Source: a virus. From it: 64,000 nt of DNA. The DNA lies in the IMG/VR virus record IMGVR_UViG_3300006903_000012; one strand, given 5' to 3'. Positions 3,910-26,894 of the stretch are shown here, one piece after another. The notes under the pieces were generated by a model. That model worked only from the letters and a program-made list of their open reading frames with translations, was not told the origin of the DNA and did no database searches. Position 1 is the stretch's first letter. Each line of letters begins with the position of its first letter. The position numbers and the translations under genes were made by a program.

Positions 3910-4663
3910 ATTTTCTGCTCCTTTATCTGAATAAAAATATTTCTGTTAAATGCTTCTAATATCACCGGCGGTCCGCAATAGAAAGAAACCCCAATCTCGT
4001 AAGGTTAAGAAGAACTATCGCGTAGCCTTACCCTTCCAGTTTATTTTCGTAACCCATAGTTCCTAGCATCCTACCCGGATAGATCACAGTTACCTGTGCC
4101 CCTATCAATGGCAGTTATAGGATCGAGTTTTTCAACCAGAACAGATTGGCAGCTGACCAGACTGATCTAGCTCATGCTATTGGGTCCTGTCCATGAGCTA
4201 CGGCTGAATTGTTTATCTAAATACTATCTGGGTGTCTTACACCTTGCGGAATATTTATTCGGTATATTGTTCCCTCGATCTTAATCGAGTTTTGCTAGAG
4301 AACCATCGTCCCAGTTACATTCACAATGTTTATCGGCTCTCACCAGGAAGGCTTGTCTTATTGGCTTGCTGTCCAGATGCTTCTTGCATCGCCATCGCAG
4401 GCGACATCTGGGACTTGTCAATTCAAGTTCTGACTCTGGGCCGGCCATTATTCCGCTCACCTTGCTAGTCTGTCTTCGTTATTAATCTCGTTTCAAGATT
4501 TCATAACTTACTCGGTTGCGCGCCGAGACCAGACCGCAGATAGTAATGTTATTTAGTTGTTATTACTTAATTCCCAATTATCGAACATCCCGTTCCCAGG
4601 CGACCAGTGAAGCGGGAGGTATATGCGGCTTGCGCACACATATGCTTCACAACCAACGCAGTT
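3910..4663 (-). ncRNA. unresolved structured non-coding region, probably further group I intron material plus the last capsid exon(s)
   Basis: No ORF on the minus strand. Minus-strand RNA has an R-like CAGACUAGCA (plus 4466-4478) and a complementary S-like AUCAGUCUGG (plus 4155-4170). There is a long hairpin GUGAAGCAUAUGUG..GCAA..CGCAUAU..GCUUCAC (plus about 4600-4650). There is also a P1/P2-like block CCUAU..AUAGGGGCACAGGUAACUGUG (plus 4085-4125) resembling the 5' end of the intron at 10533-11021. Confidence 0.4.
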
Positions 4664-5795
4664 CATTTCTTGTTATCACAAAGGCTCTTTATCCTTTGTT
4701 TCTATATGTCACCATATAGTTCAGACTATATCTTCACCCAAAAACAAGGATGGCCCGCTCTCGTGGAAGAATTATTGTCCAAAATAAGGACTCACTTCTA
4801 GTCGTTACACCTTCAAGCAGTTTTCACTGCGAGCTTGGCTCGGTATTGCCTTATAAAGGTTTTCACCGACTTCACGGGCTTTATACGCGGCAGCTGCGAT
4901 GATCTTTTAAACCCTCTGTATCTCGGATCAAATTTTGCATGAATTTTTGAATGACAGCTCATGCAGACAGTAACAAGATTTTCTTTTGAATGATTATCTT
5001 TACCAAAATCAATATGATGAACCCTAAGAAGCTTCTTGGATGAACAAAGAACGCACTTATAACCATCTCGTTCTTTAATTCGTTTCTGAACCTTACCATT
5101 CCAACCAGGAGCATAGCCAACCAAAGAACCGTGCCCGTGTCGAAACCAGTGGTGTTTCTTTCCTCGATGAACATTCGGACTAGCTCGTAAAAGTTCCGAA
5201 TGTGCCTCCCTTTCTTTTGGATCATCAAACCTATTTGGTCTATACTTACAGACACACGACTTACAAAATTTAGCAGTTCTAGATTTTATCTGTTTTCCGC
5301 AATCTTTACAGAACCTTGGTTTTACAAGTTTCTTTTGCCTGCCAAATGATCTAGCATATTTAGCAAATTCAGAACCGTGAGGGAGTTGGTCTCCTGCTAA
5401 ATATTTTCTATAACAAGGCCGGCAATAACCAGTTTTTGATTTTCCGTAAGGCGGATTACTTTTATTCAGCTTAGTTTTACAAACCTTACACCTAGGACGA
5501 ATCTTTTCTTTACAGACAGGACAAAGATAAGCCCGTGGGTTTATCTTTCGATGCTTGCATCTAGGACATACTTTTTTGTAATTGTGCGCCATTCCGGCAT
5601 CCTTTGTTACTATCAAAACAGAGATAAAAACATCTACTGTATTATATCATATTCTACCGCGTAAACTTCAAAAGATATTGCCGTACACCCGGGCATCAAG
5701 TCCTTGAAACTGAGCGGGGTCTGTGTTGATTTGTAAACCAGCGGTTCACCGTTGTGGAACACACGCAACGGATAAACCGTCGAACTAAACGTCTT
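4664..5795 (-). mobile_element. composite group I intron region: decayed intron copy, HNH endonuclease ORF and an intact ribozyme core
   Basis: The intact core has R tagtcgttacac at 4799-4810 and S gttcagactatatc at 4719-4739. P4-P5-P4' (gcttggctcggtattgcc..ttcaccgacttcacgggc, 4832-4878) lies inside the 3' end of the HNH ORF. The 3' end is GAUAACAAGAAAUG at 4664. Upstream, 5598-5790 is homologous to the P2-P8 region of the sibling introns (gcggttcaccg at about 5740, and a 3'-end motif GAUAGUAACAAAGGAUG at 5598), but its P7 strands no longer pair. The 5' boundary is uncertain. Confidence 0.5.
4813..5592 (-). CDS. intron-encoded HNH homing endonuclease with multiple CxxC zinc knuckles
   Basis: ATG at 5592 after AAAGGA (the track start 5616 is TTG). 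The C-terminus LRVHHIDFGKDNHSKENLVTVCMSCHSKIH is an HNH motif. The stop codon abuts the R element. Confidence 0.75.
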   Translation of the reverse strand: MAHNYKKVCPRCKHRKINPRAYLCPVCKEKIRPRCKVCKTKLNKSNPPYGKSKTGYCRPCYRKYLAGDQLPHGSEFAKYARSFGRQKKLVKPRFCKDCGKQIKSRTAKFCKSCVCKYRPNRFDDPKEREAHSELLRASPNVHRGKKHHWFRHGHGSLVGYAPGWNGKVQKRIKERDGYKCVLCSSKKLLRVHHIDFGKDNHSKENLVTVCMSCHSKIHAKFDPRYRGFKRSSQLPRIKPVKSVKTFIRQYRAKLAVKTA

Positions 5796-5870
5796 ATCAC
5801 CCACCGCCGTCGCCGGGTACCGGAAGTCAGGCACCAGGATCAAGCGACCGATAGACGTGTCTATCGCATC
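5796..5870 (-). CDS. major capsid protein, exon 8 (3' boundary unresolved)
   Basis: A start-less in-frame segment DAIDTSIGRLILVPDFRYPATAVGD follows the 3' end of the intron at 5871. The track ORF 5634..5843 continues to a stop at 5634, but its last 45 or so codons are homologous to intron core sequence. Confidence 0.4.
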
Positions 5871-6287
5871 CTTTATTTGTTATCACTCAAAAAATAATGA
5901 GTGAGCGCAAGCATTTCTGTTGCACTCTGCAACTTATCATTTGTTGCAGAACAGACTATATCATATTCCGGAACAACCCGGAACTCGCCCTCTTAGTCGT
6001 TACACATTTAGGATAGTCGAGATTTATTTAGGACCGAACCACAAAATGGACAATAAGTTACTGGAACTCCATAGCAGAATTCTTTATCTGATAAAGTTAA
6101 GAACCAAACATCAGATAATTTTTCAATAGCCGCATCTGGAACCTTATCTTTACAAACATGTGTCTCAGTAATCTCATCTTCCCACATTCTCTAACTATCT
6201 CCTTTAGCTCGGTGTTATCATTTCAGACTTCCACCGAATTCGAGCGATTTGCACACAACCATTACTGATTGTGGGGCCTAAAAATTA
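5871..6287 (-). mobile_element. group I intron (type 1) in the capsid gene, with a small ORF in P6
   Basis: P1 is GGCU|U..AGGCC with a U.G pair. P2 is CACAAUCAGUAAUGGUUGUG. The P4/P5 block is ttccaccgaattcgagcg (6226-6246). R is tagtcgttacac (5994-6006) and S is cagactatatcatattcc (5952-5968). The 3' tail is GAUAACAAAUAAAG. Confidence 0.65.
6008..6187 (-). CDS. intron-encoded small protein (59 aa, CxxC pair), function unknown
   Basis: ATG at 6187 after AAGGAG. Sequence is MWEDEITETHVCKDKVPDAAIEKLSDVWFLTLSDKEFCYGVPVTYCPFCGSVLNKSRLS. It falls below the 60-aa cutoff of the track, and its stop overlaps the R element. Confidence 0.45.
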   Translation of the reverse strand: MWEDEITETHVCKDKVPDAAIEKLSDVWFLTLSDKEFCYGVPVTYCPFCGSVLNKSRLS

Positions 6288-6396
6288 AGCCAAAACAAAG
6301 CCGGGAACAATCTGCCCGTCTTTCTGTTGGATGATTTGCATGATGGGATGAGTTGAGCCGAGCTGAGTTGCGCCCAAACTTAAATATCCCTTCTTT
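6288..6396 (-). CDS. major capsid protein, exon 7
   Basis: Start-less segment (I)KKGYLSLGATQLGSTHPIMQIIQQKDGQIVPGFVLA bounded by two intron ends. It joins exon 6 in frame. Confidence 0.55.
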
Positions 6397-7447
6397 CAAT
6401 CGCTCTAGCATCACTGCTAGGATTAGACTATACCTTCATCCACAAACATTATGGATGTCTGCGTGTTGCAGGTATTTTATATTTGGCTTCGAATTTTTTA
6501 ATTTTTTCAATAAGTTTAGATTCATTTTTCAAATCATCTGTTCGAAGAATAAGAAGTTTGTATCCTCTAAGTCGATAATCCTTGTTTCTTTTCTTGTCAC
6601 GTTCAAAACTTTCTTCTCGACTATGCCAATAGTTACCATCATATTCAATAATCAGGTTATGCGTTCGGTGAACAAAATCAGGTACATGTCCCGCTACCCA
6701 GACCTTGCCCGAACCAACGAAACGATAATTGAATTTATGTTCTTTAAGGATACCTAACAACTTCTTTTCGTGTGAGTTCGCATGCCGTCGACTGCTACCC
6801 ACAATCTTCTTAGCAAACTCGATAATCTCCTCAGGCGATTTCCGAGACCAAGTTTTACTAAAACTGGCCGCTCGTTTTCTGGAAATGTCATCGTTACCCC
6901 AATTAGCTGCGTACATTTTTACCCAATTTTCAGGATCCGATAACCATTCAGTAGTTTGTATTGATTTTAGTTGACTGAAAGCTTCCAACTCACTAGGAGA
7001 TTTTGAATACCAAGATTTTAGAAAAGCTGCAACCCTTCTTTCTCTCACATCTGGATTATCATAGTTATTTTTCCTAAGTTTTTCTTGAAACTCAGGATCG
7101 GTATGATTTTCCGACATGATTTTGGATCGCAACTTCCTAAATTTTGGAGTTTGCTTAGATTCTCGCATCTTCTTTCTATAAACAGGGTCTTTAAACTTTT
7201 CTGACATTACCTTTCGCATTTTCTTCCGAAATGCTTCTTTCTCGGCTTCAGTCATTCGATCCCATTTAGACAGCTTTTCGCCATTCTTATTTTTCTTAGC
7301 CATAAAAATACCTGCCTCGGATTTCTCCTCAGTCGTTACGGGGCTAAATGTTTGATTACATCAGCTTCCCTCGGTGTTGTCTACTTGAGATTTCACCGAT
7401 ATAGCAGAATTTTACATACCCATTACTGGATAAGGCGACAAAAATTT
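6397..7447 (-). mobile_element. group I intron (type 2) in the capsid gene, carrying an endonuclease ORF in P8
   Basis: P1 is GCGAU|AAAUUUUUGUCGC and P2 is UAUCCAGUAAUGGGUA. The P4/P5 block is cttccctcggtgttg..ttcaccgatatagcag (7366-7410). R is cagtcgttacgggg (7330-7343) and S is agactataccttcatcc (6425-6441). A P9 hairpin CUAGCAGUGAUGCUAG is followed by ..UUG at 6397. Confidence 0.7.
6449..7303 (-). CDS. intron-encoded homing endonuclease, Vsr/PD-(D/E)XK-like (EDxHD-type) catalytic domain
   Basis: 284 aa. The N-terminus has basic repeats (K..DP.YRKKMRESK, HTDPEFQEKLRKN, NPDVRERR). The C-terminus YRFVGSGKVWVAGHVPDFVHRTHNLIIEYDGNYWHSREE..RDKKRNKDYRLRGYKLLILR fits the Vsr/DUF559-like pattern. 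Confidence 0.7.
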   Translation of the reverse strand: MAKKNKNGEKLSKWDRMTEAEKEAFRKKMRKVMSEKFKDPVYRKKMRESKQTPKFRKLRSKIMSENHTDPEFQEKLRKNNYDNPDVRERRVAAFLKSWYSKSPSELEAFSQLKSIQTTEWLSDPENWVKMYAANWGNDDISRKRAASFSKTWSRKSPEEIIEFAKKIVGSSRRHANSHEKKLLGILKEHKFNYRFVGSGKVWVAGHVPDFVHRTHNLIIEYDGNYWHSREESFERDKKRNKDYRLRGYKLLILRTDDLKNESKLIEKIKKFEAKYKIPATRRHP

Positions 7448-7693
7448 ATCGCTTCTAGCGCTTTCGGATGACCAAAGATGTGCGTTGGTTTCGCACACCC
7501 CGCCACCAAAAAGTTGTCGAACTCTTCAATGTCAAAGCTGCCAGTCGGATTTGCATTCACACGCGCGCCGTTAGCGGCCGTGACTTGGGTCGTAATACCA
7601 TCAAAGGCTTTCGAGTTAGTATTGCGATTACCCTTAACGATAGCCCTGTCCCAATATTGAAGCGTTAAAATTTCTTGCAGCTTGATCTCTTTT
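7448..7693 (-). CDS. major capsid protein, exon 6
   Basis: Start-less reverse translation (V)KEIKLQEILTLQYWDRAIVKGNRNTNSKAFDGITTQVTAANGARVNANPTGSFDIEEFDNFLVAGCAKPTHIFGHPKALEA. It resembles the G.G...l.Gl and ivmnP blocks of HK97-fold capsid proteins. Confidence 0.65.
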
Positions 7694-8023
7694 CATGGTT
7701 ATCCACTATTACTAGTGGCATGGACTATTCCTTCATCCGCGATTTGCGGAGCCTGCGTATTGCAAGTTACTTATTACTTGCCTCGCCTTTCGGCTCAGTC
7801 TCTACGGGGTCACGAAGACTTCCCTCGGAATTATCCATCTTATGATAATGGATTTTATCTTTCTCAATAGTAAGATAATCAAAAACAATCTCATTCTCAG
7901 AAAGATATTTTTCAATGTCTAAAAGTTGATTAGTTGTTAGCATAAGTTTGGACTTATCCGATATGAGCAGGTTATTATTGCAAGCAATTACTCGCTTGCC
8001 AGGCTATCATTGAGATTTCCTTA
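7694..8023 (-). mobile_element. group I intron (type 2) in the capsid gene, no intact endonuclease ORF
   Basis: P1 is GGGU|U..AGCCU and P2 is GCAAGCGAGUAAUUGCUUGC. R is cagtctctacgggg (7796-7809) and S is ggactattccttcatcc (7722-7738). P9 is CCACUAGUAAUAGUGG followed by ..AUG at 7694. A 150-nt insertion in P5 holds only a short ORF remnant starting at 7943. Confidence 0.65.
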
Positions 8024-8041
8024 ACCCCCATTACTTGAACG
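8024..8041 (-). CDS. major capsid protein, exon 5 (18-nt microexon)
   Basis: CGUUCAAGUAAUGGGGGU lies between the 3' end of one intron and the P1 of the next. It keeps the reading frame (..G-V-VQVMG-V-K..) and resembles the end of exon 4 (CAACUUGAUGGGGU). Confidence 0.45.
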
Positions 8042-8955
8042 CAAGTTCCCATCTATTACTAGATGGCTTAGACTATACCTTCAAAGGCCGCGTATTATCA
8101 AGACAAAATAAAAGTCTCGATCTCGGATTTCTCCTCAGTCGTTACGGGGTCAAACTTTTACAAGTCGACTTCCCTCGGTATTACCCTCGTCTTCAGCGGT
8201 CGGGTTTCACCGATATGAGCGGCGTGCCGGGCCATTTCTTATTTTCCGATAAAGGCCGGAAAGCTAATTTTCTGCTTCCTGCTTCCGATCAATTTCTGCA
8301 TCACTTTCTCATCGAAGCTTTTTATCTTATCAGCTACCTGCCCAATATTTTTTAACTCTTCAGCCCAAAGAATCAGAACCGAAAATCCTTGCTTTTTGAT
8401 ATACTCAATACGCTTCACATCATAGCACCGCATTTTTCCATCTTTCCTATGATGGGTATACCCAAAAACATCGATAACAGCTTTAGCGTCCACTCGACAA
8501 AAATCAGGGCAGAATCTGCCAATCATTAGTCGACCATTCCCAACATACTCATACGGCAGATCCATCAATTTTAGAATATCCCGCACTTGCTGTTCGGGTA
8601 ATGATAACGGACGATTCCACAACGAGCTAGAAAGTCTTTCAGCACCATAAGTCGGATCTGTCTTATACAAAATTCTAGACTTCTTCCTTGCCTTCTTGGC
8701 GGCCTTACTTCTAACATCAGTTGTTAAGTGAGCTAGCCCGGTTTTCTCAAAAAGACCCTGCTTCATTCTTATTGAGTGTTCCTTACCCTGTTTAGCTGTT
8801 TTCTTTTTTCCTTCGGGTGTAGCATGATACAACTTCTTTGACTTTGAAATCTTCTTTGCGACTGCTTCACGTTCCTTTGCTGAACGGTTCTTCCAAAGTC
8901 TTTTTGCAGCTATTGAACATTTAATGCCTTTACTGGTCTTTTGCATATAGAATTA
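8042..8955 (-). mobile_element. group I intron (type 2) in the capsid gene, endonuclease ORF in the P1 loop
   Basis: The 5' splice site is GGGGU|UAAUUC at 8956/8955. The ORF starts 11 nt into the intron. The IGS-like GGCCC follows the ORF stop. The P4/P5 block is cttccctcggtatta..ttcaccgatatgagcgg (8169-8222). R is at 8136-8149 and S at 8069-8086. P9 is CCAUCUAGUAAUAGAUGG. Confidence 0.65.
8239..8946 (-). CDS. intron-encoded homing endonuclease, Vsr/PD-(D/E)XK-like (EDxHD-type)
   Basis: 235 aa. The C-terminus LPYEYVGNGRLMIGRFCPDFCRVDAKAVIDVFGYTHHRKDG..KRIEYIKKQGFSVLILW is paralogous to ORFs 6449, 9290 and 21560. Confidence 0.7.
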   Translation of the reverse strand: MQKTSKGIKCSIAAKRLWKNRSAKEREAVAKKISKSKKLYHATPEGKKKTAKQGKEHSIRMKQGLFEKTGLAHLTTDVRSKAAKKARKKSRILYKTDPTYGAERLSSSLWNRPLSLPEQQVRDILKLMDLPYEYVGNGRLMIGRFCPDFCRVDAKAVIDVFGYTHHRKDGKMRCYDVKRIEYIKKQGFSVLILWAEELKNIGQVADKIKSFDEKVMQKLIGSRKQKISFPAFIGK

Positions 8956-9261
8956 ACCCCATCAAGTTGCGTACTGAGCTGCGAAATACCAAGCCCTTGA
9001 ATCCGGGCCACCGCAATCGAATGGCGGATTTCTTCGTTCGTCAAACTTTTCTTCCCGCCAATATACCGGCGGGTCTGACTCTTATTCGACCCATCGTGAG
9101 TATATTCCTCAGGACAAGAACCAGGGTCGAAGAAACCTTGATAAGTTGCGCCGTCACCACTGAAGTCTAGCGTAGTCATTTCACGCCAAAGATCAGCTTG
9201 GTAATCAGTCACAACTTCTGGAAGAACTCTCCAGTTCGTGATTTCTTCGCACAACGTTAAG
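8956..9261 (-). CDS. major capsid protein, exon 4
   Basis: Most of track ORF 8910..9254, whose TTG start is an artefact: (I)LTLCEEITNWRVLPEVVTDYQADLWREMTTLDFSGDGATYQGFFDPGSCPEEYTHDGSNKSQTRRYIGGKKSLTNEEIRHSIAVARIQGLGISQLSTQLDG. Confidence 0.6.
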
Positions 9262-10270
9262 CATCATTTTCAGTTACCTGAAAGATAGACTATACCTTCA
9301 TCCTCTTTCGAGGAGCTCTGCGTATTACCGTATTGGTTTCTTTTAGTCGTTCCGACTTTTGTATCCTCTTATCAAAAATCAATAATTTAACCGCTAAGGA
9401 TTCCAAATCTTGTAATTCATCTTCATCGATAACTAAAGTCTGATATCCTTGAGATTTTATGTACTCAGTTCTTTTCTCAACTCGATCTCTCAGCTTTTTG
9501 GTCTTCTGATATGCCTTATGCCGAAAGCCACCTAGCTCAATCAAGGCGCGATAATCGTCTCTCTTAAAATCAGGACAATACCGTCCAATCATCAGTTTAC
9601 CATTACCAACAAATTCATAAGGTAATCCCAGTAGCTGTAAAAACGATTCAAGTTGGATCTCAATTCTGGACATCGAGCGCTTATTTAGAATTTTAGAAAC
9701 AGTATCAGCATGAACATCGCAAGATTTGTAATGCTCGTTTATTGATTTCTTAAACTTCTTCCTTCGAACAAGTCCGCCAATTTTCCAAATTTTCTTCTGT
9801 ATCTCAGATAGATACTTCCGATGAGATGCTGTTCTGACAGTTTTTCGTAGCGCTGTAGTTCTTCGTTTTCGTATTTTGGGGTCTGTCCATTCCAATTTTC
9901 TCATCTCACTGCGTCGTTTCTGCTTATCTGGATCAGAGTAATAGATATCTTGTTGTCGCTTTGCTCTTTCTTTTATTTTGCTAGGAGTCAGAATCCGCTT
10001 CTGAGCGACACTCTTCGCTTTATTTACCCTCTTAAGTTCTGACTTAGATATCTTATACTTGTATGCTCGTACTGGCTTTCCTGTTCTTGGACTTGTTCTA
10101 ATTTTATTTTTCCGGCTCAAGGCCAATCCTCCTACTTTACAATACGGTCTCGCCTTTCGGCTCAGTCGTTACGGGGTCACGAAGACTTCCCTCGGTGTTG
10201 TCCCTGTGGGAGTTCACCGATATGAGCAGAGTTGTTTCATGTGTATTACTACACAAGGAGACCTTAGTTG
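9262..10270 (-). mobile_element. group I intron (type 2) in the capsid gene, endonuclease ORF in P8
   Basis: P1 is GAGAU|CAACUAAGGUCUC and P2 is UGUGUAGUAAUACACA. The P4/P5 block spans 10187-10230. R is cagtcgttacgggg (10163-10176) and S is agactataccttcatcc (9287-9303), which contains the ORF stop. P9 is UUUCAGGUAACUGAAA followed by AUGAUG at 9262. Confidence 0.7.
9290..10126 (-). CDS. intron-encoded homing endonuclease, Vsr/PD-(D/E)XK-like (EDxHD-type)
   Basis: 278 aa with a basic repeat-rich N-terminus. The C-terminus is LPYEFVGNGKLMIGRYCPDFKRDDYRALIELGGFRHKAYQ..KRTEYIKSQGYQTLVI. Confidence 0.7.
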   Translation of the reverse strand: MALSRKNKIRTSPRTGKPVRAYKYKISKSELKRVNKAKSVAQKRILTPSKIKERAKRQQDIYYSDPDKQKRRSEMRKLEWTDPKIRKRRTTALRKTVRTASHRKYLSEIQKKIWKIGGLVRRKKFKKSINEHYKSCDVHADTVSKILNKRSMSRIEIQLESFLQLLGLPYEFVGNGKLMIGRYCPDFKRDDYRALIELGGFRHKAYQKTKKLRDRVEKRTEYIKSQGYQTLVIDEDELQDLESLAVKLLIFDKRIQKSERLKETNTVIRRAPRKRMKV

Positions 10271-10283
10271 ATCTCAGTTGGAT
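10271..10283 (-). CDS. major capsid protein, exon 3 (13-nt microexon; alternative solution 10271..10293)
   Basis: AUCCAACUGAGAU lies between the 3' end of the intron above (..CCGAUUG) and the P1 of the intron below. Two splice-site pairings keep the frame: ..TAQ-Y-PTE-I-LTL.. or ..TAQYP-QPIDPTE-I-LTL.. Confidence 0.35.
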
Positions 10284-10491
10284 CAATCGGTTGCTTTGTT
10301 ATCTATATCTTCACATTCGATATAGGTCAGACTATCTCATCACCCACGTTTGTGGGGCTTCCCTCTTAGTCGTTACACATTGCCCGACTGCAGTTAGCAA
10401 TCTGCTTAGCTCGGTGTTGGCATCACAGCGTTCACCGAATTCGAGAAGTTTTATATCAGTTAATTACTTAACTGTACCCCCAACCGAGGGT
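10284..10491 (-). mobile_element. compact ORF-less group I intron (type 1) in the capsid gene
   Basis: About 200 nt. P1 is CCCAAU|..GUUGGG (alternatively ACCCU|..GGGGU). P2 is CAGUUAAGUAAUUAACUG. The P4/P5 block is gctcggtgttggcatcacagcgttcaccgaattcgag (10409-10445). R is tagtcgttacac (10367-10378), P8 is CCCACAAACGUGGG and S is gtcagactatctc (10326-10345). The 3' tail is GAUAACAAAG. Confidence 0.65.
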
Positions 10492-10532
10492 ATTGGGCCG
10501 TAAAATCGGTTGGCGTCACATACGGTTGTGGA
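10492..10532 (-). CDS. major capsid protein, exon 2 (41-46 nt)
   Basis: (L)PQPYVTPTDFTAQ(Y) begins right after the ..UAACAAAAUG 3' end of the upstream intron. The 3' boundary is 10492 or 10487, depending on which P1 is used. Confidence 0.4.
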
Positions 10533-11021
10533 CATTTTGTTACTTAGGAAGTGATTCTATAAATTCATCTATTGTTGCGAACTCTGTGTAGCGTCCATTG
10601 ATTATATCTTCGTCTACTTTGGCTTCTTTCTGTTGCCATTCCTTTGTCCAAAACCATTGCTGATCTAACAAAGAACTTGCTAACAACAGACTAGTCCAGA
10701 TACTGACAAGTCGTCCGTTTGATTTCCTCAAAGCTATATAATCAAACAAGAAGACCCTTGGAACCTGAAGCAATCGACCAAACCAAGAACGTCGCTTCAA
10801 TGGATAAACCATAACTTATCTCCTAAGGATCAATCATTTCTGTTGATCTCTTACACTTCTAATTTGTGCAAGTTCAGACTATCTCTTCGTCTTGAAAGAC
10901 GCTATCCGTATAGTCGTTACACATTTAGTTAATTGATTAACTTTTAGCTCGGGATTAGCGTCGCAGCCTTCCCCGAATTAGGATAGATCGCATAAATAAA
11001 TCTTATGCCCCTCACTATTGA
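10533..11021 (-). mobile_element. group I intron (type 1) in the capsid gene, with a 90-aa ORF near its 3' end
   Basis: P1 is CCU|UCA-AUAG-UGAGGG with a U.G pair at 11022. P2 is GCAUAAGAUUUAUUUAUGC. The P4/P5 block is agctcgggattagcgtcgcagccttccccgaatta (10944-10980). R is tagtcgttacac (10911-10922) and S is gttcagactatctc (10872-10885). The ORF runs 10812 -> 10540, and the 3' end is GUAACAAAAUG at 10533. Confidence 0.65.
10540..10812 (-). CDS. intron-encoded protein of unknown function (no nuclease motif seen)
   Basis: ATG preceded by AGGAGAUAAGUU. 90 aa, MVYPLKRRSWFGRLL...WTKEWQQKEAKVDEDIINGRYTEFATIDEFIESLPK. It lies between the S element and the predicted 3' splice site. Confidence 0.5.
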   Translation of the reverse strand: MVYPLKRRSWFGRLLQVPRVFLFDYIALRKSNGRLVSIWTSLLLASSLLDQQWFWTKEWQQKEAKVDEDIINGRYTEFATIDEFIESLPK

Positions 11022-11296
11022 AGGATCACCGGATCCGTCGCCTTTGTCACCAACCCGCCATCCAACCCTTTGGATTTCAAAATATGCTCTGTCATAGACT
11101 TCACGAGCAACGGATCAGCTTCGAAACCCTGGGCATTCAAATTCTTCAAAACTTGTTTCGTAATTTCGTCAGCGCCGTATGGATCATTCAGATTCACACC
11201 AGCGCTTTTTGCAAACAGACGAGCCGCATCATTGGCCGACATACCAGCCACCGGCAACACTTGCGGCACCGTCAACATATTATCAAAAGCATCCAT
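11022..11296 (-). CDS. major capsid protein, exon 1
   Basis: ATG at 11296, 20 nt after the scaffold gene stop. MDAFDNMLTVPQVLPVAGMS...GLVTKATDPVI. The track ORF stop at 11015 falls inside the P1 loop of the first intron. Confidence 0.6.
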
Positions 11297-12895: not shown

Positions 12896-15800
12896 CTAAG
12901 AAACTGACACTAGTGTTTCGGCCACAACCGGCACTCTGGTAAACGCAAAATGTTCGATCCAGCCCCTCAGAAAATCACGCTGATTACTGGACTTCTTAAT
13001 TACACCATCTGAATCGGGATAAAATCCCATTGAAATTCTAATACAATCTTCATGCGGAATTTTATTTTGAATGTCTGATTTGACTTCTTGATACAACTGC
13101 CGACCTAATGCTGTCGGAAAAAAGATACCCCGTGCTTTTGGTTGCCGACCGTCTATCCAAATGTCAGTTGCGATCCCAGCGCTCAATCGTTCAGTTCCAC
13201 ATTTAGGACATAGATAATCAGTTAACGATTTGAACTCATAACCGCAGTCACAATCATAGAGAGAATAATGCGCGACACTGGCAAACGGCGGCGGAACTGT
13301 TTTTGATTTGAACCGTCGAATGGCTTCTTCATAAAATGCTTTAGTAACTTTATCGCCTTCAATATCTCTATCGAATTTGGTGGTAGTGGCTTCCCACTCC
13401 ATCATCCCATCATCTTTTATGCGAGCTTTTGTAATTCGCCACTCAGTTCGGAAAACATCAGAACTAAAAGAGATGGGAACTAAAGTTTGTGACTTTTTAA
13501 CTTGTGCGTCTGAAAAATCATCTAAGATTTTATCTGCCAGTTTAGAGTTAAGGGCATAATAATTTTTCAAATGTTTTTTAGCTTCCGAAATACTATCTTT
13601 ATCTGAGCTATCTCGAGATAGATGTGACCAAACATCACCAACAATTGCAGTCCCATAACGATCAACAAGTTTCGAAAGCATCTTATTAGAAGCTACATCT
13701 GAGTTATATCTACGTCTGGCATTATTATTTGTTGATCCTGAAAGAGTTGGCGCAACCTTTTGAAAAGCATTCTGATTTCCGGTGCCCTCTCCAACTCCAA
13801 TAACATGCTCACCAGGCAAAGAATTACTATGACCATGTGTACTTTGGTCATGCTTGCCTGGGAGATGTTTCTGTTCACCACCACTCTTCTCTTCTGCATC
13901 TGCTCGCCAAGCATCTAAACATTCATACTCTTTTGGATTCTTATTCGGTTGGAATCCATCTCGTGCCTTCTCAAACGCATCGGCCGCTTGTGAATATTTA
14001 CCAGCGTGATAAGCATTCCACCCTTGCGCAATCCATTTACCTGAATAGTATTTGTAATATTCTGACCAGATAGCTTTCAAGCAGCTTTGATCGGCCTTGG
14101 AAATAAGCGACTTACCTACCTTATCCAAAAGAACATCTTGATAATCGGCAATTTGTTCGCCCAAATTCTCAATGCCTTGCGACAACCTAGTTCTGGCTGT
14201 GGGATCTTTTGTTGAAGACAGATCTTCTTTTGCTCGAGCACGCTGTTGTTGAGCTAAATCGATTCTAGAATGTAACTCGGAAGTAGATAACTTGTTAAGT
14301 ATCTTTTGGTCTCGCTGTCTTTCATCGGCAGTACGGTTTGATAGAACTTTTCTTGTTGTCGGAACCTTCGCCCCGCCTCCTACCTTCTTCTTCGCCGCTG
14401 CAATGCTAGTATCATTATCTTTGGCATATTGTCGAGCCGCCGCATCGCGCAGTTGAGCAGATGTATGCGCAACTTTCCCACTGGCGCCTTTGATGCCAGC
14501 ATGACTCGACTGGTCGTGTTGTCCAGGGAGATGTTTTTCTTCCAATATATGTCGACTTGCCGCTAAATATGCTTTTAGCGACTTAAAATCTGAACCTTTG
14601 CCACGACCATAAATATCAAGTCCTTTTGAACTATGATGCTCCCACTTGCCAGAATCAGCAATATATATAGAATGTTCCAACTGATTACGTCCGTTACCCG
14701 TAGTGGACTCATATAGATCTACACCTCGTATAGGCAACGGATTATATTTAAATCCGTGTTCACTTAGCATCTTAGTAAATTCAGGTGACCGCGGAGTTCT
14801 GGTTCGACCATGACTGCTTTGGTCATGTTTACCCGGCAAATGCTTCTGCTTACTCTCATGTATCTCATTATACTTCTTGTGAACCTCAGGAATTTTATGA
14901 TCTTCTGAACCATCGTCTGCCAGTTGACCGATCTCCCGCAACTCATCTTGATAAAGAAATCGGTGGTAACCTTTTGGAAGTAGTGACTTTGTTTCTTCAT
15001 CAGTCTCGAATTCAATATCATCCAATGCAGAAGTAGCTAATTCGATTACATTCCGCCAAGCATCCCGTTCAGCTGACGTATAGTTATAAATCTTCCTAGG
15101 TTTATCAAGCTCTCTCGACAAGGCAGAAACCGCGGAATTAATGTCATGCTGTGTCTCTGGAGTAAGGTCTTCGATCTCACTGGACTGTCGTAACTGTCTC
15201 AACAAGTCTCGACCAGCACCTCGTCCGGCCCTGGTTCCCGGTCCGAACTTTTTCAGATCAGACAGATGTGACTGACCATAACCAGCATGACTTTGTTGGT
15301 CATGTTTACCCGGCAAGTGTTTCTCAACTGCCGCCACAAACAAACTCTTCTGTAACAAATAATTCTGTCGCGCTTTTTCGACTTCATTATGCGGTTGATA
15401 CTCATGCCCGCATTTTGAGCATTTATGAGTTCCGCGTCCAATATGTGGATCTTCAACTGTACTACCGCATTTAGGACAAGCGGCAGTTGGGAAATGTTTC
15501 TCAGTCATTGATTTCTTGTATTGCTGATTCGAGAAGATATTATCACTTATAAATCGATCCACTTGTAAATTAGCATCATCAAAATCACCACGATCATAAT
15601 CTACACTTTTCCAATCGAAATTATCTCTGTCTCCATTAGAAACAAAAAACTCTGCTAATACAGTTCTGCCAGAATCGGGCAAAGCCGGTATAGTATCAGC
15701 AACATAATTCAACTTAACATCATTTGACATCTGATTTATCCAAACATCAGCTGCTTGTTTTTTTGATTTCGCACGTCCACTGCGTACTAAGTCTGATGTT

Positions 15801-16216
15801 ATTTGTGACTCAAAACTTTTAACAAGTTCCTTTGCTGCACTTGTCACATCGGCATCAGATGCTTTATATGGATCAGGTCTCTTTTGTCTCATCTTCCCGG
15901 CATGTGTTCCTTGATCGTGCTTGCCGGGAAAGTGCTTTTCCGATAACGATTTCTGATTCTGCTTAGCAACAAATGCTAACAATTCATCAGGATCAATTTC
16001 TATTTCTCCGCCACCGAAATTATGTGCGCCAAGATGCGCTTCTGGAATCGATTTCTCGTGCTTGAAATACTCGACTTCAGCCAGACGCTTTGTGGCCCAG
16101 TCTTTACTAGGTCCGCAACCTAGATTTCTTTTTCCGTCTTCACTAACCACACACCACTGATTGCCTTTTTTCTTAATCCGCTTTTCAACCAACTCGCTGA
16201 TTACAAAGTCGGCCAT
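12896..16216 (-). CDS. large virion polyprotein with C-terminal HK97-type prohead protease domain
   Basis: 1106 aa with five copies of KH(L/F)PG(K/Q)HDQ..H(A)G. The C-terminal 200 or so aa (about 12896-13500) read FDRDIEGDKVTKAFYEEAI..ASVAHYS..RISMGFYP..HFAFTRVPVVAETLV, which resembles S78/U35 prohead proteases, with an inserted CDCG..CPKCG ribbon. Confidence 0.65.
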   Translation of the reverse strand: MADFVISELVEKRIKKKGNQWCVVSEDGKRNLGCGPSKDWATKRLAEVEYFKHEKSIPEAHLGAHNFGGGEIEIDPDELLAFVAKQNQKSLSEKHFPGKHDQGTHAGKMRQKRPDPYKASDADVTSAAKELVKSFESQITSDLVRSGRAKSKKQAADVWINQMSNDVKLNYVADTIPALPDSGRTVLAEFFVSNGDRDNFDWKSVDYDRGDFDDANLQVDRFISDNIFSNQQYKKSMTEKHFPTAACPKCGSTVEDPHIGRGTHKCSKCGHEYQPHNEVEKARQNYLLQKSLFVAAVEKHLPGKHDQQSHAGYGQSHLSDLKKFGPGTRAGRGAGRDLLRQLRQSSEIEDLTPETQHDINSAVSALSRELDKPRKIYNYTSAERDAWRNVIELATSALDDIEFETDEETKSLLPKGYHRFLYQDELREIGQLADDGSEDHKIPEVHKKYNEIHESKQKHLPGKHDQSSHGRTRTPRSPEFTKMLSEHGFKYNPLPIRGVDLYESTTGNGRNQLEHSIYIADSGKWEHHSSKGLDIYGRGKGSDFKSLKAYLAASRHILEEKHLPGQHDQSSHAGIKGASGKVAHTSAQLRDAAARQYAKDNDTSIAAAKKKVGGGAKVPTTRKVLSNRTADERQRDQKILNKLSTSELHSRIDLAQQQRARAKEDLSSTKDPTARTRLSQGIENLGEQIADYQDVLLDKVGKSLISKADQSCLKAIWSEYYKYYSGKWIAQGWNAYHAGKYSQAADAFEKARDGFQPNKNPKEYECLDAWRADAEEKSGGEQKHLPGKHDQSTHGHSNSLPGEHVIGVGEGTGNQNAFQKVAPTLSGSTNNNARRRYNSDVASNKMLSKLVDRYGTAIVGDVWSHLSRDSSDKDSISEAKKHLKNYYALNSKLADKILDDFSDAQVKKSQTLVPISFSSDVFRTEWRITKARIKDDGMMEWEATTTKFDRDIEGDKVTKAFYEEAIRRFKSKTVPPPFASVAHYSLYDCDCGYEFKSLTDYLCPKCGTERLSAGIATDIWIDGRQPKARGIFFPTALGRQLYQEVKSDIQNKIPHEDCIRISMGFYPDSDGVIKKSSNQRDFLRGWIEHFAFTRVPVVAETLVSVS

Positions 16217-19200: not shown

Positions 19201-21270
19201 TAACAACTGATCTTGAATATCAGGCAGACAATACCAATCTTGCTCATTTAGAATATCGTCGAGTTTTTCAGATGCGGTAATTTCCGCTTTTTCTATTAAA
19301 TCAATTTTAGATTTTTCTTCATGGTTAATATTCCATTCCCAGATCTTTCCAGTTTTTGTTTCAGATATGATCTTACCCCCAAGAGCTTCGTTCATTGAAT
19401 TTGGCCGAATATTACCATGCTCAACATAAGCTCTAACAGAGTTAATACCCGACGATGCAAGTAACTTAAATATAGCATTTGCTGTTTCTTTTCCAAATCC
19501 AGAACCAGAACGTGACGAATCTATTCGATTGAAGTAGGCATAATCACGATCATTATTGGGTAACTCTACTGTTGCAGTTACTACTATATCATCTTTAGGA
19601 AGTGCATTTTCTAACCAATTTTCTTTTCTTAACCTATCGTTTATTTTAGCATCAAAGAAGAGCCTGTCGCCGGATTGAGTAACAGTTATGTCTAACCTAT
19701 CTGTGTGAATTTTACTGGGAATATTATCTTTTTTACCATACTCACCAGCATGTGATTCTTGATCGTGCTTGCCGGGGAGGTGTTTTTGTATTTCGTTATC
19801 TAACTCAACCAAACTTTTATACTCTTCAAGCGGCGCAACTAATTCTTCCAAATGCTCAATAGTTAACTGATTACCGACTTGCTTAAAAGACTCTTGCAGT
19901 AATTTGCTAAACTTCTTAACTGTCTCACTTGAGTTTCTTAATTGCTTGCCGTCCGCTAACAAATCTTCCGCCAGCGATTTAGCATATTGTTGCATCTCGC
20001 TGTAAGCACTGTCTATTTGATCGAGAGCTTCAGGTTTGTTAGCATCTTCTTGCAGGCCACCGATCGCTTCAGTATCTTGATCGATAGAATCCAGACTATC
20101 ACTAGGGAAACTATCCATACCTTCAAGCCCCGGAGCCGCTGGTAACCCGCTTGTTTTCACGTCAATAATTTTCCACGCCTCAGCTTGTTTCTGAGCATCA
20201 ATCGGTTTCAAGATCGGTTGATTACCAGTCAAAGTCATTAGCATCGTTGCACGTTTACCAGCCAGATCTGCTTGCACACTCGTCTCGCCGGTCATATCAA
20301 TTTTGAACTTGAACTTGAACCCAGATGCAGTCGACATCAGAATCTTTGTATTAATGAGATCCTCGACTAATTGAGCATAGAAACCAGTGCCCGCTCGCGA
20401 CGATACTTTTGAAGACGCTTCCACACCCGCCAATGTACGATCATGCTCAAAGATTCGCAAATCGCCAATTGACAATCCAAACGCAGCACACACCATTTCA
20501 GCAAAACGTTTGAAATTCTCAATCATATTCACATCAGCCGGCGAAAGAGTTAATGGAATAAATCTCGCCGGCTTTGTGTGATCGTACAACAGTGGCATTT
20601 TCATGGGATCAATGTCATTCCACATTTCGCGGAAACCTGTTGCCCATGCGATTGCTTCTGCTTCAGACATATCCATAACATCCAAAATCCCAGCCATCGG
20701 TGTGTTACCCAATTGCTTGAGATAATAAAGATAGATGCGCGAGAGAGCTTCAATCGATAAAAATGCACTTTCAACTGGCGCTTCTTGAAATACTTTGCGA
20801 GTCAAATCAGTTCGTGGTTGAGTAATCAAACGAATCACATCGCCACGACCAAAATAAACTCGATCTAATCCATTATAGGGATTGATCTGTACAAACGGAA
20901 TGTCGCGATCATAGGTGGGGTATAATGTTTCACCATCAATATGATAGAGACCACCAATGATTCCGTCCATTTCAGGATTCGCCACAACTTCAGCATTTCC
21001 CGCAATGGGGAGAATTAGAGCATCTTGCAGCATGCGCGACAACCATACGTCCCAACCATCACCATCATCTGCATCCGCCAGAACTTTCTCGAGATACATT
21101 TTCATCTCGCCTTGTTCTTCTGGCTTATCACTAACTATTTCCCATTCCAAAGATACAAGTTCGCGCAAGATATGCCGAATACAAAGCTTTGTAATCGGCT
21201 CCGTCGCAACTTGATACTTCCACTGAGCTACCGACAAGCGAGTTGGGTTAGCTAAATAAAGCGGTTGCAA
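16201..21270 (-). CDS. portal protein fused to GNAT-like, MuF/SPP1 gp7-like and 2H phosphoesterase-like domains (main exon)
   Basis: 1689 codons. The N-terminus has a portal-like LSVAQWKYQVATEPITKLCIRHILRELVSLEWEIV. A GNAT-like RSGSGFG..N..MNEALGG lies at about 19330-19700. A MuF-like NTELNW..CDIC..HPMTCHCNL lies at about 18630-19200. 2H motifs PHITLVY (17521-17553) and KPHVTVS (about 17270) are present. There are three His-rich motifs. The track start is TTG with no RBS, consistent with a 3' exon. Confidence 0.75.
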   Translation of the reverse strand: MQPLYLANPTRLSVAQWKYQVATEPITKLCIRHILRELVSLEWEIVSDKPEEQGEMKMYLEKVLADADDGDGWDVWLSRMLQDALILPIAGNAEVVANPEMDGIIGGLYHIDGETLYPTYDRDIPFVQINPYNGLDRVYFGRGDVIRLITQPRTDLTRKVFQEAPVESAFLSIEALSRIYLYYLKQLGNTPMAGILDVMDMSEAEAIAWATGFREMWNDIDPMKMPLLYDHTKPARFIPLTLSPADVNMIENFKRFAEMVCAAFGLSIGDLRIFEHDRTLAGVEASSKVSSRAGTGFYAQLVEDLINTKILMSTASGFKFKFKIDMTGETSVQADLAGKRATMLMTLTGNQPILKPIDAQKQAEAWKIIDVKTSGLPAAPGLEGMDSFPSDSLDSIDQDTEAIGGLQEDANKPEALDQIDSAYSEMQQYAKSLAEDLLADGKQLRNSSETVKKFSKLLQESFKQVGNQLTIEHLEELVAPLEEYKSLVELDNEIQKHLPGKHDQESHAGEYGKKDNIPSKIHTDRLDITVTQSGDRLFFDAKINDRLRKENWLENALPKDDIVVTATVELPNNDRDYAYFNRIDSSRSGSGFGKETANAIFKLLASSGINSVRAYVEHGNIRPNSMNEALGGKIISETKTGKIWEWNINHEEKSKIDLIEKAEITASEKLDDILNEQDWYCLPDIQDQLLDILRQAYSEGSLTAVQDIQQQMFEAGLADRLTLPKEFQFILTNPSVIDLLDARAATLVQHVDSGTKYFLRQNILTGYDNGLSSEEIVDYIQANLFGLKFKKDAGKLSESRIRSIVNTELNWADSRATLDQMTAVGLKTKGWITRGYDVCDICTQNEEQGFVPLDFEYETVFDGETTQHPPAHPMTCHCNLQSNPKEFEDFLKDGGHYWNGDESNAKLKEILEQETQRIIAENKKAVEKHQPGKHNQKKHAGALSSTPVPEDIGKPAVEHKFSKPSVSYYSELGPGSYQRDKFWHPTKSEIKKHLNLLLIKVDGKWYAGRQIENDTSHHELAYSAELSQAAFNRAVRLVLVDTEGGDPWIGSAFGQMGAGNNEDRAYQNLKSALSGLEYFGVPGNTKVKVVSDWKDPEGDKTYRTTIKEKSLPMNSWGQPDQIGKRSRFDSVADAQHYLQQYSLVPVISDSEIDVLGGNYAYAGIVWGTDADEYVEAALVDVGDLPIDDIRAGRAKIFGAKGIKGSKIVEEKAEHDDTCMIALSVPNEIVNLLDFKKSEPHITLVYLGKMDRYFDSLAIRKTIEKVCSEYDQKSLTLNLTGTIITLQEVSVAEVKITPALKHLHDDLVAGLLSNGQAPDRTWEAGGYKPHVTVSDNQLTSMGAEKELAVTWDVFGVWLYLGNEKEFYLFGNSKTEKSLLGFDSYAEKIPGQYRKEFEQFIKDRAKTEDLQSVNDENLKRYYEDFLDMVLHYGFEYYKPEMPALVRSVVKSNNGKYDFDDELPIVVKSLIVEGELKQAARQLQKDGYEILVKHQAGKHDQKTHAGNLEKESGMDFSKTPKTVAQVNRALKVTGRTKTELVKGKGYFYFDDVDLPDQSVHVNSINHLSLRMWMDEYDSKYSELEQKAFYTGTGYSGVHDPDDGRPPDLNFFNRGNFEKLKRLKNLQIDGRTVRVKEEVDNAGDPVTKITDVMAFNSNQALENWLQKIQARPVGRQHYEILGRIEDDKTWPTL

Positions 21271-21542
21271 TTTGTTACAAAGTCTTACAGACCTTTGAGT
21301 AAGTCATTTCTGCTCACTTCTTGCAATTCCTATTTCTTGCAAGTTCAGACTATATCATTATCTTTCTTCAAGATAGTTCCCACATAGTCGTTACACACTT
21401 CCGCAGATGCGGGTTGGCTCGGTATTTGGACTCTCACCATTCACCGAATTCGAGAACTGTTACAACATCCATTACTGGATGAAGCCGCCAAGTTGACGGG
21501 TTAAGTAGGGGGGCGGTTGCTGTATACTCGTCGGCGCAACCG
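21271..21542 (-). mobile_element. ORF-less group I intron (type 1) near the 5' end of the portal gene
   Basis: P1 is AAGU|CG..CGGCUU with a U.G pair. P2 is CAUCCAGUAAUGGAUG. The P4/P5 block is ggctcggtatttggactctcaccattcaccgaattcgag (21417-21455). R is tagtcgttacac (21385-21396) and S is gttcagactatatc (21343-21356). The 3' end is GUAACAAAUUG at 21271. Confidence 0.65.
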
Positions 21543-26674: not shown

Positions 26675-26684
26675 CTTGAAACTC

Positions 26685-26894
26685 CTAATCGTGCACTGCA
26701 CTTTCCAAAAGAATATCCGAACCGGACTCAGTAACATTAAGTGACGAAAAAGACTTGACCGGATTAGTTAACCCATTACCATCACCAATCCACACTACAA
26801 ATGGCTCGCCCGTTTCAGAATTAACTTCAGGCAGATCTTTTACTAACTCTTTCAGTCTTGCAACTGTTAATGGACTATCAAAATTTAAGATCAT
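26685..26894 (-). CDS. hypothetical protein
   Basis: 69-aa ORF with ATG start, coupled to its upstream neighbour. Confidence 0.45.
   Translation of the reverse strand: MILNFDSPLTVARLKELVKDLPEVNSETGEPFVVWIGDGNGLTNPVKSFSSLNVTESGSDILLESAVHD

Follow-up and report, generated by a model that had tools for sequence, protein, structure and literature searches.

Organization of the capsid locus

The analyzed stretch of viral DNA (IMG/VR record IMGVR_UViG_3300006903_000012; 64,000 nucleotides (nt), in the following referred to as the window) carries on its minus strand, from 11296 to 4567, one major capsid gene of the HK97 fold. The gene consists of nine exons and eight group I introns, the latter accounting for 5395 of its 6730 nt (80%). 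Exons 2, 3 and 5 are microexons (coding segments of at most 51 nt), measuring 46, 23 and 18 nt. This bears out a preliminary description of the region, which had proposed very short exons here and whose junction strings are present in the sequence at the positions it gave.

For the gene model, 5' splice sites were set after U and 3' splice sites after G in a way that keeps the reading frame and the alignment to homologues. A tblastn search with the intron-less homologue P0002 recovered the coding pieces on the window, including exons 2 and 3; exon 5 is too short for BLAST. Exon 1 (11022-11296, 275 nt; tblastn 11284-11021) starts with the ATG at 11296 and ends in GAUCCU. Intron 1 (10533-11021, 489 nt) holds an open reading frame (ORF) of 90 amino acids (aa; 10540-10812) after the ribozyme core and ends in G at 10533. 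The subsequent microexon 2 (10487-10532; tblastn 10531-10484) encodes (L)PQPYVTPTDFTAQYP, colinear with 13 out of 13 aligned homologues, and is separated by the ORF-free intron 2 (10294-10486, 193 nt) from microexon 3 (10271-10293; tblastn 10293-10270), which encodes QPIDPTE plus the AU of an Ile codon (QPIDPTEI). Intron 3 (9262-10270, 1009 nt), whose helix P7.2 holds in its loop an ORF for a DUF559 endonuclease (9290-10126), leads to exon 4 (8956-9261, 306 nt; tblastn 9260-8913, 79% identity), ending in GAUGGGGU. Microexon 5 (8024-8041, possibly extending to 8018 and then 24 nt long) encodes (V)VQVMG plus the GU of a Val codon. It lies between intron 4 (8042-8955, 914 nt; DUF559 ORF at 8239-8946) and intron 5 (7694-8023, 330 nt), which begins with UAAGGAAAUC and carries no endonuclease. 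Exon 6 (7448-7693, 246 nt; tblastn 7692-7447, 89% identity) begins with A AAA GAG AUC and is followed by intron 6 (6397-7447, 1051 nt) with a DUF559 ORF (6449-7303), exon 7 (6288-6396, 109 nt; tblastn 6395-6288), intron 7 (5871-6287, 417 nt) with a 59-aa ORF, exon 8 (5656-5870, 215 nt; tblastn 5876-5631), intron 8 (4664-5655, 992 nt) with an HNH ORF (4813-5616), and finally exon 9 (4567-4663, 97 nt including the stop codon; tblastn 4662-4570, 90% identity).

The predicted spliced product and its homologues

Concatenation of the exons yields a single open frame of 444 codons. The resulting 444-aa protein shows 76-81% identity with the three closest homologues that lack introns (P0001-P0003, 442-450 aa) and 56-81% with all 13 aligned homologues, with which it is colinear except for two residues missing at the exon 5/6 junction and two additional residues in exon 7. 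The latter insertion (window 6330-6360; GATQLGSTHP in place of GAT--GGTQP) is unseen in the 13 aligned homologues. The microexons are part of this colinearity. In exon 3, residues P109, D111, P112, T113 and E114 are invariant in the aligned homologues; exon 5 reads VQVMGV compared with TQVMGV in P0002 (five out of six residues matching), all 13 homologues have its six residues, and it is in frame only with the 3' splice site of intron 4 at G8042. The residues that were expected in intron-less homologues if the short exons were genuine (PQPYVTPTDFTAQYP, QPIDPTEI, VQVMGV) are present there. The three microexons are in-frame pieces of native coding sequence located between separate group I introns.

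The assignment as capsid protein was approached on structure and sequence level. A model built on the homologue P0002 (pLDDT 65), not on the spliced protein of the window, matched the capsids of SPO1, HK97 and SU10 in Foldseek with a probability of 1.0 (E 3e-11 to 1e-8); encapsulins were likewise matched with a probability of 1.0, and TM-scores across the fold matches are modest (0.3-0.5). The match to the PHROG "major head protein" is weak (E 7e-4), and a profile search of the capsid against PDB sequences gave no match. Searching metagenomes with the long ORF pieces returned 754 matches with uninterrupted homologues of ~445 aa, the best being 56-64% identical to this incomplete query, and tblastn with P0002 detected no second full capsid homologue in the window. 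Over 20,282 bases, the gene-bearing stretch matches a 111.5-kb Logan contig at 100% identity, and the same genes occur on 4 contigs, which speaks against an assembly artefact.

Two intron types and their ribozyme cores

All eight intervening sequences match the Rfam covariance model RF00028. Introns 1, 2 and 8 score above the gathering score of 50 bits (55.4, 52.4 and 58.9 bits; spans 10850-11031, 10305-10496 and 4702-4940), whereas introns 3-7 stay below it with 20.8-35.7 bits and E values of 7e-6 to 0.22 (e.g., intron 4 with 35.7 bits, E 7e-6; intron 5 with 27.1 bits, E 0.0026; intron 7 with 33.6 bits, E 3e-5), their spans at a permissive threshold being 9267-9386, 8049-8294, 7702-8045, 7213-7458/6404-6540 and 5927-6297. 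IA-type insertions are poorly handled by the general model. Introns 1, 2, 7 and 8 belong to the common type that the Rfam model fits well, and introns 3-6 form one IA-like family (type 2), whose signature CCCCGTAACGACTGA is found within the window at these four introns only.

The type-2 alignment comprises introns 3-6 and one intron of the capsid gene of the related locus L001, so that the family analysis rests on five introns. Its consensus contains the helices P3, P4, P5, P6 and P9 as well as P7.1 and P7.2, two extra hairpins between P7 and P3', an arrangement found in subgroup IA. Compensatory changes were observed in 21 of the 36 predicted pairs, including pairs in introns 4 and 5. The type-2 introns are structured ribozymes and not mere spacers. 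Endonuclease genes reside in four of the eight introns according to Pfam: introns 3, 4 and 6 encode DUF559 proteins whose nuclease domains share 33-42% identity, intron 8 an HNH enzyme.

The two introns flanking exon 5 deviate from this consensus. Intron 4 (core 8042-8238) is devoid of the P8 hairpin of its four relatives, P3' (GCGGCC) directly abutting the J8/7 motif UUUGAAGGUAUAGUCU, and it retains an intact DUF559 ORF together with P1 and P10 complementarity. Intron 5 hosts a ~130-nt AU-rich insert in P5 with a 58-aa ORF (7767-7943) and differs at positions of J6/7 and J8/7 that are invariant in its relatives (GUAGAGACU for GUAACGACU, GAAGGAAUAGUCC for GAAGGUAUAGUCU); its core helices are kept, P4 with a compensatory U-A to A-U change. 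The earlier view of exon 5 as wedged between two complete type-2 introns holds with regard to the intron type on both sides and needs qualification with regard to completeness.

A search of IMG/VR for further type-2 introns gave 0 matches for one motif pattern, and 91 matches for the 14-mer CCCGTAACGACTGA, none with flanking core motifs. Among GenBank phages, neither megablast nor tblastn found a relative of the locus, the sole match being a 70-nt piece of intron 8: window 4670-4739, in its 3' part, is 90-91% identical to unannotated stretches of the Clostridium perfringens phages CPQ4, phiCP13O, phiCP34O and vB_CpeS-17DYC. On sequence grounds, these shared 70 nt suggest that the type of intron 8 may move between unrelated phages.

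Splice-site pairings

Cleavage at the 5' splice site of group I introns depends almost universally on a U.G wobble at position -1. Here, each of the eight introns is preceded by U and ends in G (omega G), and in all eight a guide G with three to seven further P1 pairs lies at the expected place, intron 5 being the weakest with three further pairs. For scoring, every G of an intron was considered as the wobble partner, counting the P1 pairs to the 5' exon plus the adjacent P10 pairs to the 3' exon. In introns 1, 2, 3 and 6, the best-pairing G is located at intron position 7-11. Intron 1 pairs as P1 UCCU/GGGG (UCCU-UCA/UGAGGGG, U.G at 11022) with a weak P10 of 2 bp (best of 111 G's, position 11). 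Intron 2, with the guide CGGUUG-GGGGUA at its 5' end, combines P1 AUACCCU/GGGGUA and P10 CAACCG/CGGUUG, i.e., 11 bp beside the wobble pair (best of 51 G's, position 7); the CAACCG at the start of exon 3 encodes a native Gln-Pro and is at the same time this 6-bp P10 partner. Intron 3 forms P1 GAGAU/GUCUC and P10 CUUA/UAAG (best of 229, position 9), and intron 6 P1 GCGAU/GUCGC and P10 AAAGA/UUUUU (best of 234, position 9). For introns 3 and 6 as well as the L001 intron, minimum free energy (MFE) folds of the 5' region by RNAfold show exactly these P1 and P2 hairpins.

Introns 4 and 8 carry their ORF inside the P1 loop. Intron 8 forms an 8-bp P1 (UACGCGGU/GCCGCGUA) and a weak P10 (1 bp contiguous); its guide (~4891), the best of 221 G's, follows the HNH ORF just before the core. 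Intron 4 has its DUF559 ORF downstream of the 5' splice site and upstream of the guide AAUG-GCCC (8236-8229), the latter allowing P1 GGGU-UA/UGGCCC and P10 CGUU/AAUG. This G ties with three others of 231, and the site was accepted for its position right before P3 and not for its score, intron 8 having the same layout. Intron 5 pairs as GGGU-UA/UAGCCU (guide 8006-8001, just 5' of P2), consisting of four exon and two intron bp, and has no P10. Across the family, the 5' exon end and the guide co-vary (GAGAU/GUCUC, GCGAU/GUCGC, GGAGAU/GUCUCC, GGGU/GCCC, GGGU/GCCU). The boundaries of exons 2 and 3 as well as the 5' boundary of exon 5 are hence well supported in silico.

The five junctions at 11022, 10271, 8956, 8024 and 7448 all interrupt a codon after its second base, in agreement with the preliminary description. 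Intron 8 (5656) is also in phase 2, introns 2 and 7 are in phase 0. Phase 2 in six of eight introns corresponds to P ~0.03, given 37% of U's at codon position 2, a weak and post hoc signal. This bias is attributed to targets of the form (G/A)U-N in Val and Ile codons.

Boundaries of the microexons

For exons 2 and 3, two splice-site pairs had been proposed without a choice between them. Both keep the frame, and colinearity with homologues together with the 11 bp of P1 and P10 decides for the 46/23-nt pair. The 41/13-nt pair has a 6-bp P1 of its own (CCCAAU/GUUGGG) and no P10, and it deletes PQPID, including P109 and D111, which are invariant in all 13 aligned homologues. It was rejected as the main path and would at best see minor use as a cryptic site.

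The 3' end of exon 5 is less clear-cut, and three models were compared, under all of which exon 5 is a microexon of 18-24 nt. We give roughly even odds to model A (GGGGU-UAAGG, 18 nt), which places the U.G wobble within the 6-bp helix with a guide directly 5' of P2, the usual place in this family. Its 3' site (CCAUG) lies 9 nt after P9, compared with 6-8 nt in the relatives. Several observations weigh against it: P1 is short and P10 is missing, the guide G is not the best-pairing G in the 5' region of intron 5, RNAfold prefers another local hairpin at the intron start (AGG..AUC/GAU..CCU), and the GLGI-WDxA spacing of the protein becomes 33 compared with 34, 35 or 39 in 49 homologues, i.e., it is 2 aa short.

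A boundary elsewhere is the less probable solution, though one to be taken seriously. It would come in two variants, the first of which (model B, in itself unlikely) cleaves after AAGGA (8018) and keeps a native Lys-Glu in an exon of 24 nt. The start of intron 5, U AAG GAA AUC, indeed reads on in the native frame as Val-Lys-Glu-Ile, the chance of three such codons being ~5e-5 by our own arithmetic. This variant restores KEKE as well as the 35-residue GLGI..WDxA spacing of the closest homologues, and the RNAfold MFE structure pairs AGG/CCU and AUC/GAU around the cleavage point. However, it puts an A at -1 opposite the guide G and leaves almost no P1 (sum 2). Still more doubtful is model C, with a 5' site after GGGGUU (8023) and a 3' site after GAG (7687), yielding an exon of 19 nt and losing KEKE. 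The best contiguous pairing (P1 GGGUU/AGCCU plus P10 AUCA/UGAU, total 8) is offset by a U-A pair at -1, a 3' splice site 16 nt after P9 compared with 6-9 nt in four relatives, and a protein 4 aa shorter, below every homologue.

Both 5' splice sites around exon 5 present the identical P1 strand GGGU-UA, so that introns 4 and 5 cannot distinguish them by pairing. The intron 5 ribozyme might use the GGGGU-UAA of exon 4 and thereby remove intron 4, exon 5 and intron 5 at once; with an 18-nt exon the frame would be maintained and the protein would lack VQVMGV. From the sequence we predict such in-frame skipping as the most likely alternative product. That exon 5 is skipped, always or in part, appears rather improbable nevertheless. 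Precedents exist in the phage group I ribozymes of Twort orf142 and phage SIOphi (PMC11878797), and the missing P8 of intron 4 would fit, but exon 5 keeps five of six native residues in frame, all 13 aligned homologues have them, and intron 4 keeps an intact endonuclease ORF, its P1 and a P10 of 4 bp with the first four bases of this exon.

Repeated junction strings and alternative origins

The preliminary description read the repeated strings at the junctions as footprints of intron homing, i.e., as co-converted donor flanks or as a duplicated target site with tandem re-insertion. The 8-mer GGGGTTAA occurs exactly twice in the 64 kb, at 8953-8960 and 8021-8028, corresponding to two 5' splice junctions; with 1.19 occurrences expected, this is not above chance. 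GGGGUUAA is found at the junctions of introns 4 and 5 and nowhere else in the 64 kb. The 9-mer CAACCGATT likewise occurs exactly twice (10504-10512 and 10285-10293; 0.71 expected), and at least two copies were obtained in 18 out of 100 shuffles. One copy is indeed located in exon 2, where it encodes Pro-Thr-Asp in another frame, but the one described as lying just before exon 3 represents its first 9 nt. In L055, the closest relative lacking introns (78% protein identity), the two sites are spanned by TTGGATGGCGT, then AACGCAAGTCGTGGGAGT, then AAAAGAG, with GGC GT-A and GGA GT-A at the sites of introns 4 and 5. Consequently, the repeat Q-L-D-G-V / Q-V-(M/V)-G-V is native and both sites are natively GGNGU. 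The 8-mer at both junctions then results from native Gly-Val codons occurring twice, 18 nt apart, combined with the equivalent guides U(G/A)GCC(C/U) in introns 4 and 5, which also pair with the first two bases (UA) of their own introns. Furthermore, the cores of introns 4 and 5 are not the closest pair: P6 and P7.1 are common to introns 3 and 5, and intron 4 is similar to the L001 intron in P5 and to intron 6 in P7.1. This makes a recent tandem copy or re-insertion unlikely.

An origin of the repeats by homing is therefore mostly unsupported and, in our estimation, improbable. What speaks for it is the start of intron 5, UAAGGAAAU, matching the start of exon 6, AAAAGAGAU, at six of nine positions with all three differences at third codon positions, as well as lineage-specific residues adjacent to junctions (T217V, L110I, the -KE deletion). 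Set against this, homologues lacking introns also contain the DGV/MGV repeat and QP/PTD, the native KEKE of homologues by itself accounts for both KE copies, the core relationships and the counts within chance do not fit, and exon sequence up to 12 nt from the junctions is no more diverged from L055 than elsewhere (0.75 vs 0.68 identity), a comparison limited by L055 being too distant (69% nucleotide identity) for a co-conversion test. A kernel of the idea survives at intron 5, whose first 9 nt (U AAG GAA AU) resemble the exon 6 start (A AAA GAG AU). Exact searches of IMG/VR for exon 5 with its flanks returned nothing and no intron-less or single-intron allele of the lineage was found; the 16-mer TTCAAGTAATGGGGGT gave chance matches only in IMG/VR and GTDB genomes. 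The short homologous proteins P0008, P0009 and P0051 have no introns at the sites of introns 4 and 5, all reading through GVKEKEIKLQ.

A twintron or nested-intron arrangement was rejected, since the sequences between the ribozymes are in-frame native codons required for colinearity with the homologues. A decaying pseudogene whose microexons are never joined would be compatible with the missing P8 of intron 4 and with the core substitutions and the absent endonuclease of intron 5. Nine exons without frameshift or stop, 76-81% identity to homologues, the lack of a second full capsid homologue in the window and the occurrence of the arrangement on 4 contigs render it very improbable.

A further repeat was reported for the portal gene, with CAACCGC in the P1 loop of its intron and at the start of the main exon. 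Two copies are present (~21514-21520 and 21262-21268), the first apparently in the upstream exon and not in the P1 loop. It is located upstream of an Rfam intron match (21326-21505), and the annotation of L226 gives a 1689-aa portal-domain product downstream.

Insertion sites among relatives

Within 134 related loci, most capsid genes are intron-free, 126 of them being matched as a single uninterrupted piece. Three introns per capsid gene were found in L001, two each in L002 and L003, and one in the L004 group. Including the window, the capsid family has ~12 distinct insertion sites, and the site of intron 8 is common to L001. Other sites in relatives lie after ITTL-(R/Q)YWD (with a DUF559 ORF), after VFH-NGEP and after CEEITT-W (phase 1), with intron coordinates of 1967-2905 and 3338-3591 in L002 and 8973-9440 in L001. 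The hallmarks of mobile introns, i.e., intron-encoded endonucleases and presence/absence among homologous genes, are both found here.

The insertion sites of introns 1-3 fall within 69 coding nt of the protein's most conserved motif (DPVILPQPY..DF.AQYPQPLDPTEILTLCEE) and rank in the top 6-15% of 10-residue conservation windows (85th-94th percentile). This placement fits homing elements targeting invariant sequence. The sites of introns 4 and 5, at the 19th-30th percentile, are not conserved; here, the shared guide specificity is the better explanation. The guide GUCUC(C) serves GAGAU at two different places of the capsid gene, PTE-I (window) and KEKE-I (L001). Exon 6 starts (7685-7693) with AAAAGAGAU followed by C, which represents an unoccupied GAGAU target of the guide GUCUC of intron 3, and a type-2 intron of L001 (9745-10013, guide GUCUCC) is located at the exact site matching this exon start.

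Microexons 2 and 3 encode the capsid motif DFTAQYPQPIDPTEIL, and intron 3 sits exactly at its E-I. A 937-aa ORF on the minus strand (23924-26737) contains, at 25997-26047, the closely resembling DFAAEYPQPISPVEII, a likeness that may reflect a shared maturation or cleavage motif. Repeats similar to (E)KHLPGKHDQxSHG appear three times in the same ORF and at least five times in a 1106-aa ORF (12896-16216, minus strand).

Proposed origin and splicing of the microexons

Considering all data, the best explanation, to which we assign a probability of approximately 0.72, is a capsid gene colonized by eight group I introns with microexons as native remnants. Exon content, colinearity, splice-site nucleotides, pairings and core covariation are direct observations on the locus; from these we infer splicing at the given sites in vivo, as well as the order and route of the insertions. 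The eight mobile introns would have colonized the gene independently, leaving microexons as remnants of native coding sequence wherever two insertion sites lie close together, not as extra or duplicated sequence. Ordinary group I chemistry would suffice for each microexon. Its last 4-6 nt would pair with the guide of the downstream intron (P1), putting the U.G wobble at the cleavage site. For ligation, its first 4-6 nt would pair with the guide of the intron upstream (P10). These segments do not overlap even in the 18-nt exon. Exons 2 and 3 would have arisen from three unrelated introns targeting the most conserved stretch of the protein, and exon 5 from the equivalent guides of introns 4 and 5 meeting the native target GGN GU twice, 18 nt apart. 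This colonization scenario has its weak points. Besides those named for exon 5 and the low protein conservation at the sites of introns 4 and 5, P8 is a helix of the conserved core and its absence leaves the autonomous activity of intron 4 uncertain.

A more far-reaching scenario would add alternative splicing into two capsid isoforms that differ by the presence of the six exon 5 residues, and a spread of the IA-like family to four sites of this one gene and a fifth in a relative by retargeting only the guide sequence; we regard this combination as a long shot. If true, the guide-retargeted spread would be natural evidence for reverse splicing to new sites instead of endonuclease homing. The co-variation of target and guide in any case bears on how group I introns reach new sites. 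Moreover, the locus would offer a compact natural system for the side-by-side folding and action of several ribozymes on one transcript, for the minimum exon length serving P10 of one intron and P1 of the next, and for the question whether identical guide specificities cause exon skipping. Annotation pipelines would call such a capsid gene as a string of fragments and miss exons of 18-46 nt.

Comparison with known systems

The type-2 introns resemble the subgroup IA introns of the T4 td/nrdB type by their P7.1/P7.2 helices and by ORFs in the loops of peripheral helices. They differ in intron 4 lacking P8 and, as in intron 8 of the other type, carrying its ORF in the P1 loop.

Regarding exon size, the preliminary description had called splicing of such small exons unusual, which is overstated. 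Agaricus and Armillaria have exons of 3-15 nt in mitochondrial genes densely filled with introns, mostly of group I (PMC2987802, PMC6506933). The cox1 gene of Agaricus bisporus holds 19 introns amounting to 94.7% of the gene, with exons down to 3 nt, and exons of 12-15 bp are likewise on record for such fungal genes (PMC2987802, PMC6506933). Common to the fungal cox1/cob genes and the capsid gene are many group I introns bearing homing endonuclease genes within one conserved gene, here with 80% intron and exons of 18-46 nt. In contrast, the former are organelle genes relying on nuclear or intron-encoded maturases and their endonucleases are of the LAGLIDADG or GIY-YIG type, whereas a phage structural gene with DUF559 and HNH endonucleases is concerned here.

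Among phages, cDNA of the ribonucleotide reductase large subunit of Bacillus phage phiNIT1 shows a small exon between two group I introns, and in phage SIOphi (Bastillevirinae) an internal exon of a terminase or polymerase gene (passages of the source differ) is skipped in >47% of transcripts (PMC11878797). These genes have two to three introns and serve DNA metabolism or packaging, compared with eight introns and three microexons in a capsid gene. For Staphylococcus phage Twort, the title of the study by Landthaler & Shub (1999), cited in PMC11878797, indicates that three group I introns interrupt one structural gene (orf142) and that their ribozymes skip exons, again three introns compared with eight here. 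Group I introns divide the capsid gene of the crAss-like Zeta group into five fragments, and a single genome there may contain up to 14 introns (PMC7886860); this capsid gene has four interruptions instead of eight, belongs to an unrelated capsid family, and was presented there with no analysis of microexons or splice sites. In jumbo gut phages, the mean is 18.5 introns per genome and genes are broken into two or three pieces (PMC12880540). Searching literature texts for phage genes interrupted by five to eight group I introns turned up none, the highest counts in the searched literature being three introns (Twort orf142, Bastillevirinae genes) and five fragments (crAss-like capsid). The eight-intron structural gene would hence be the densest phage case in this literature: while its kind is already known, its density, with eight introns and three microexons in one structural gene, is extreme for a phage.

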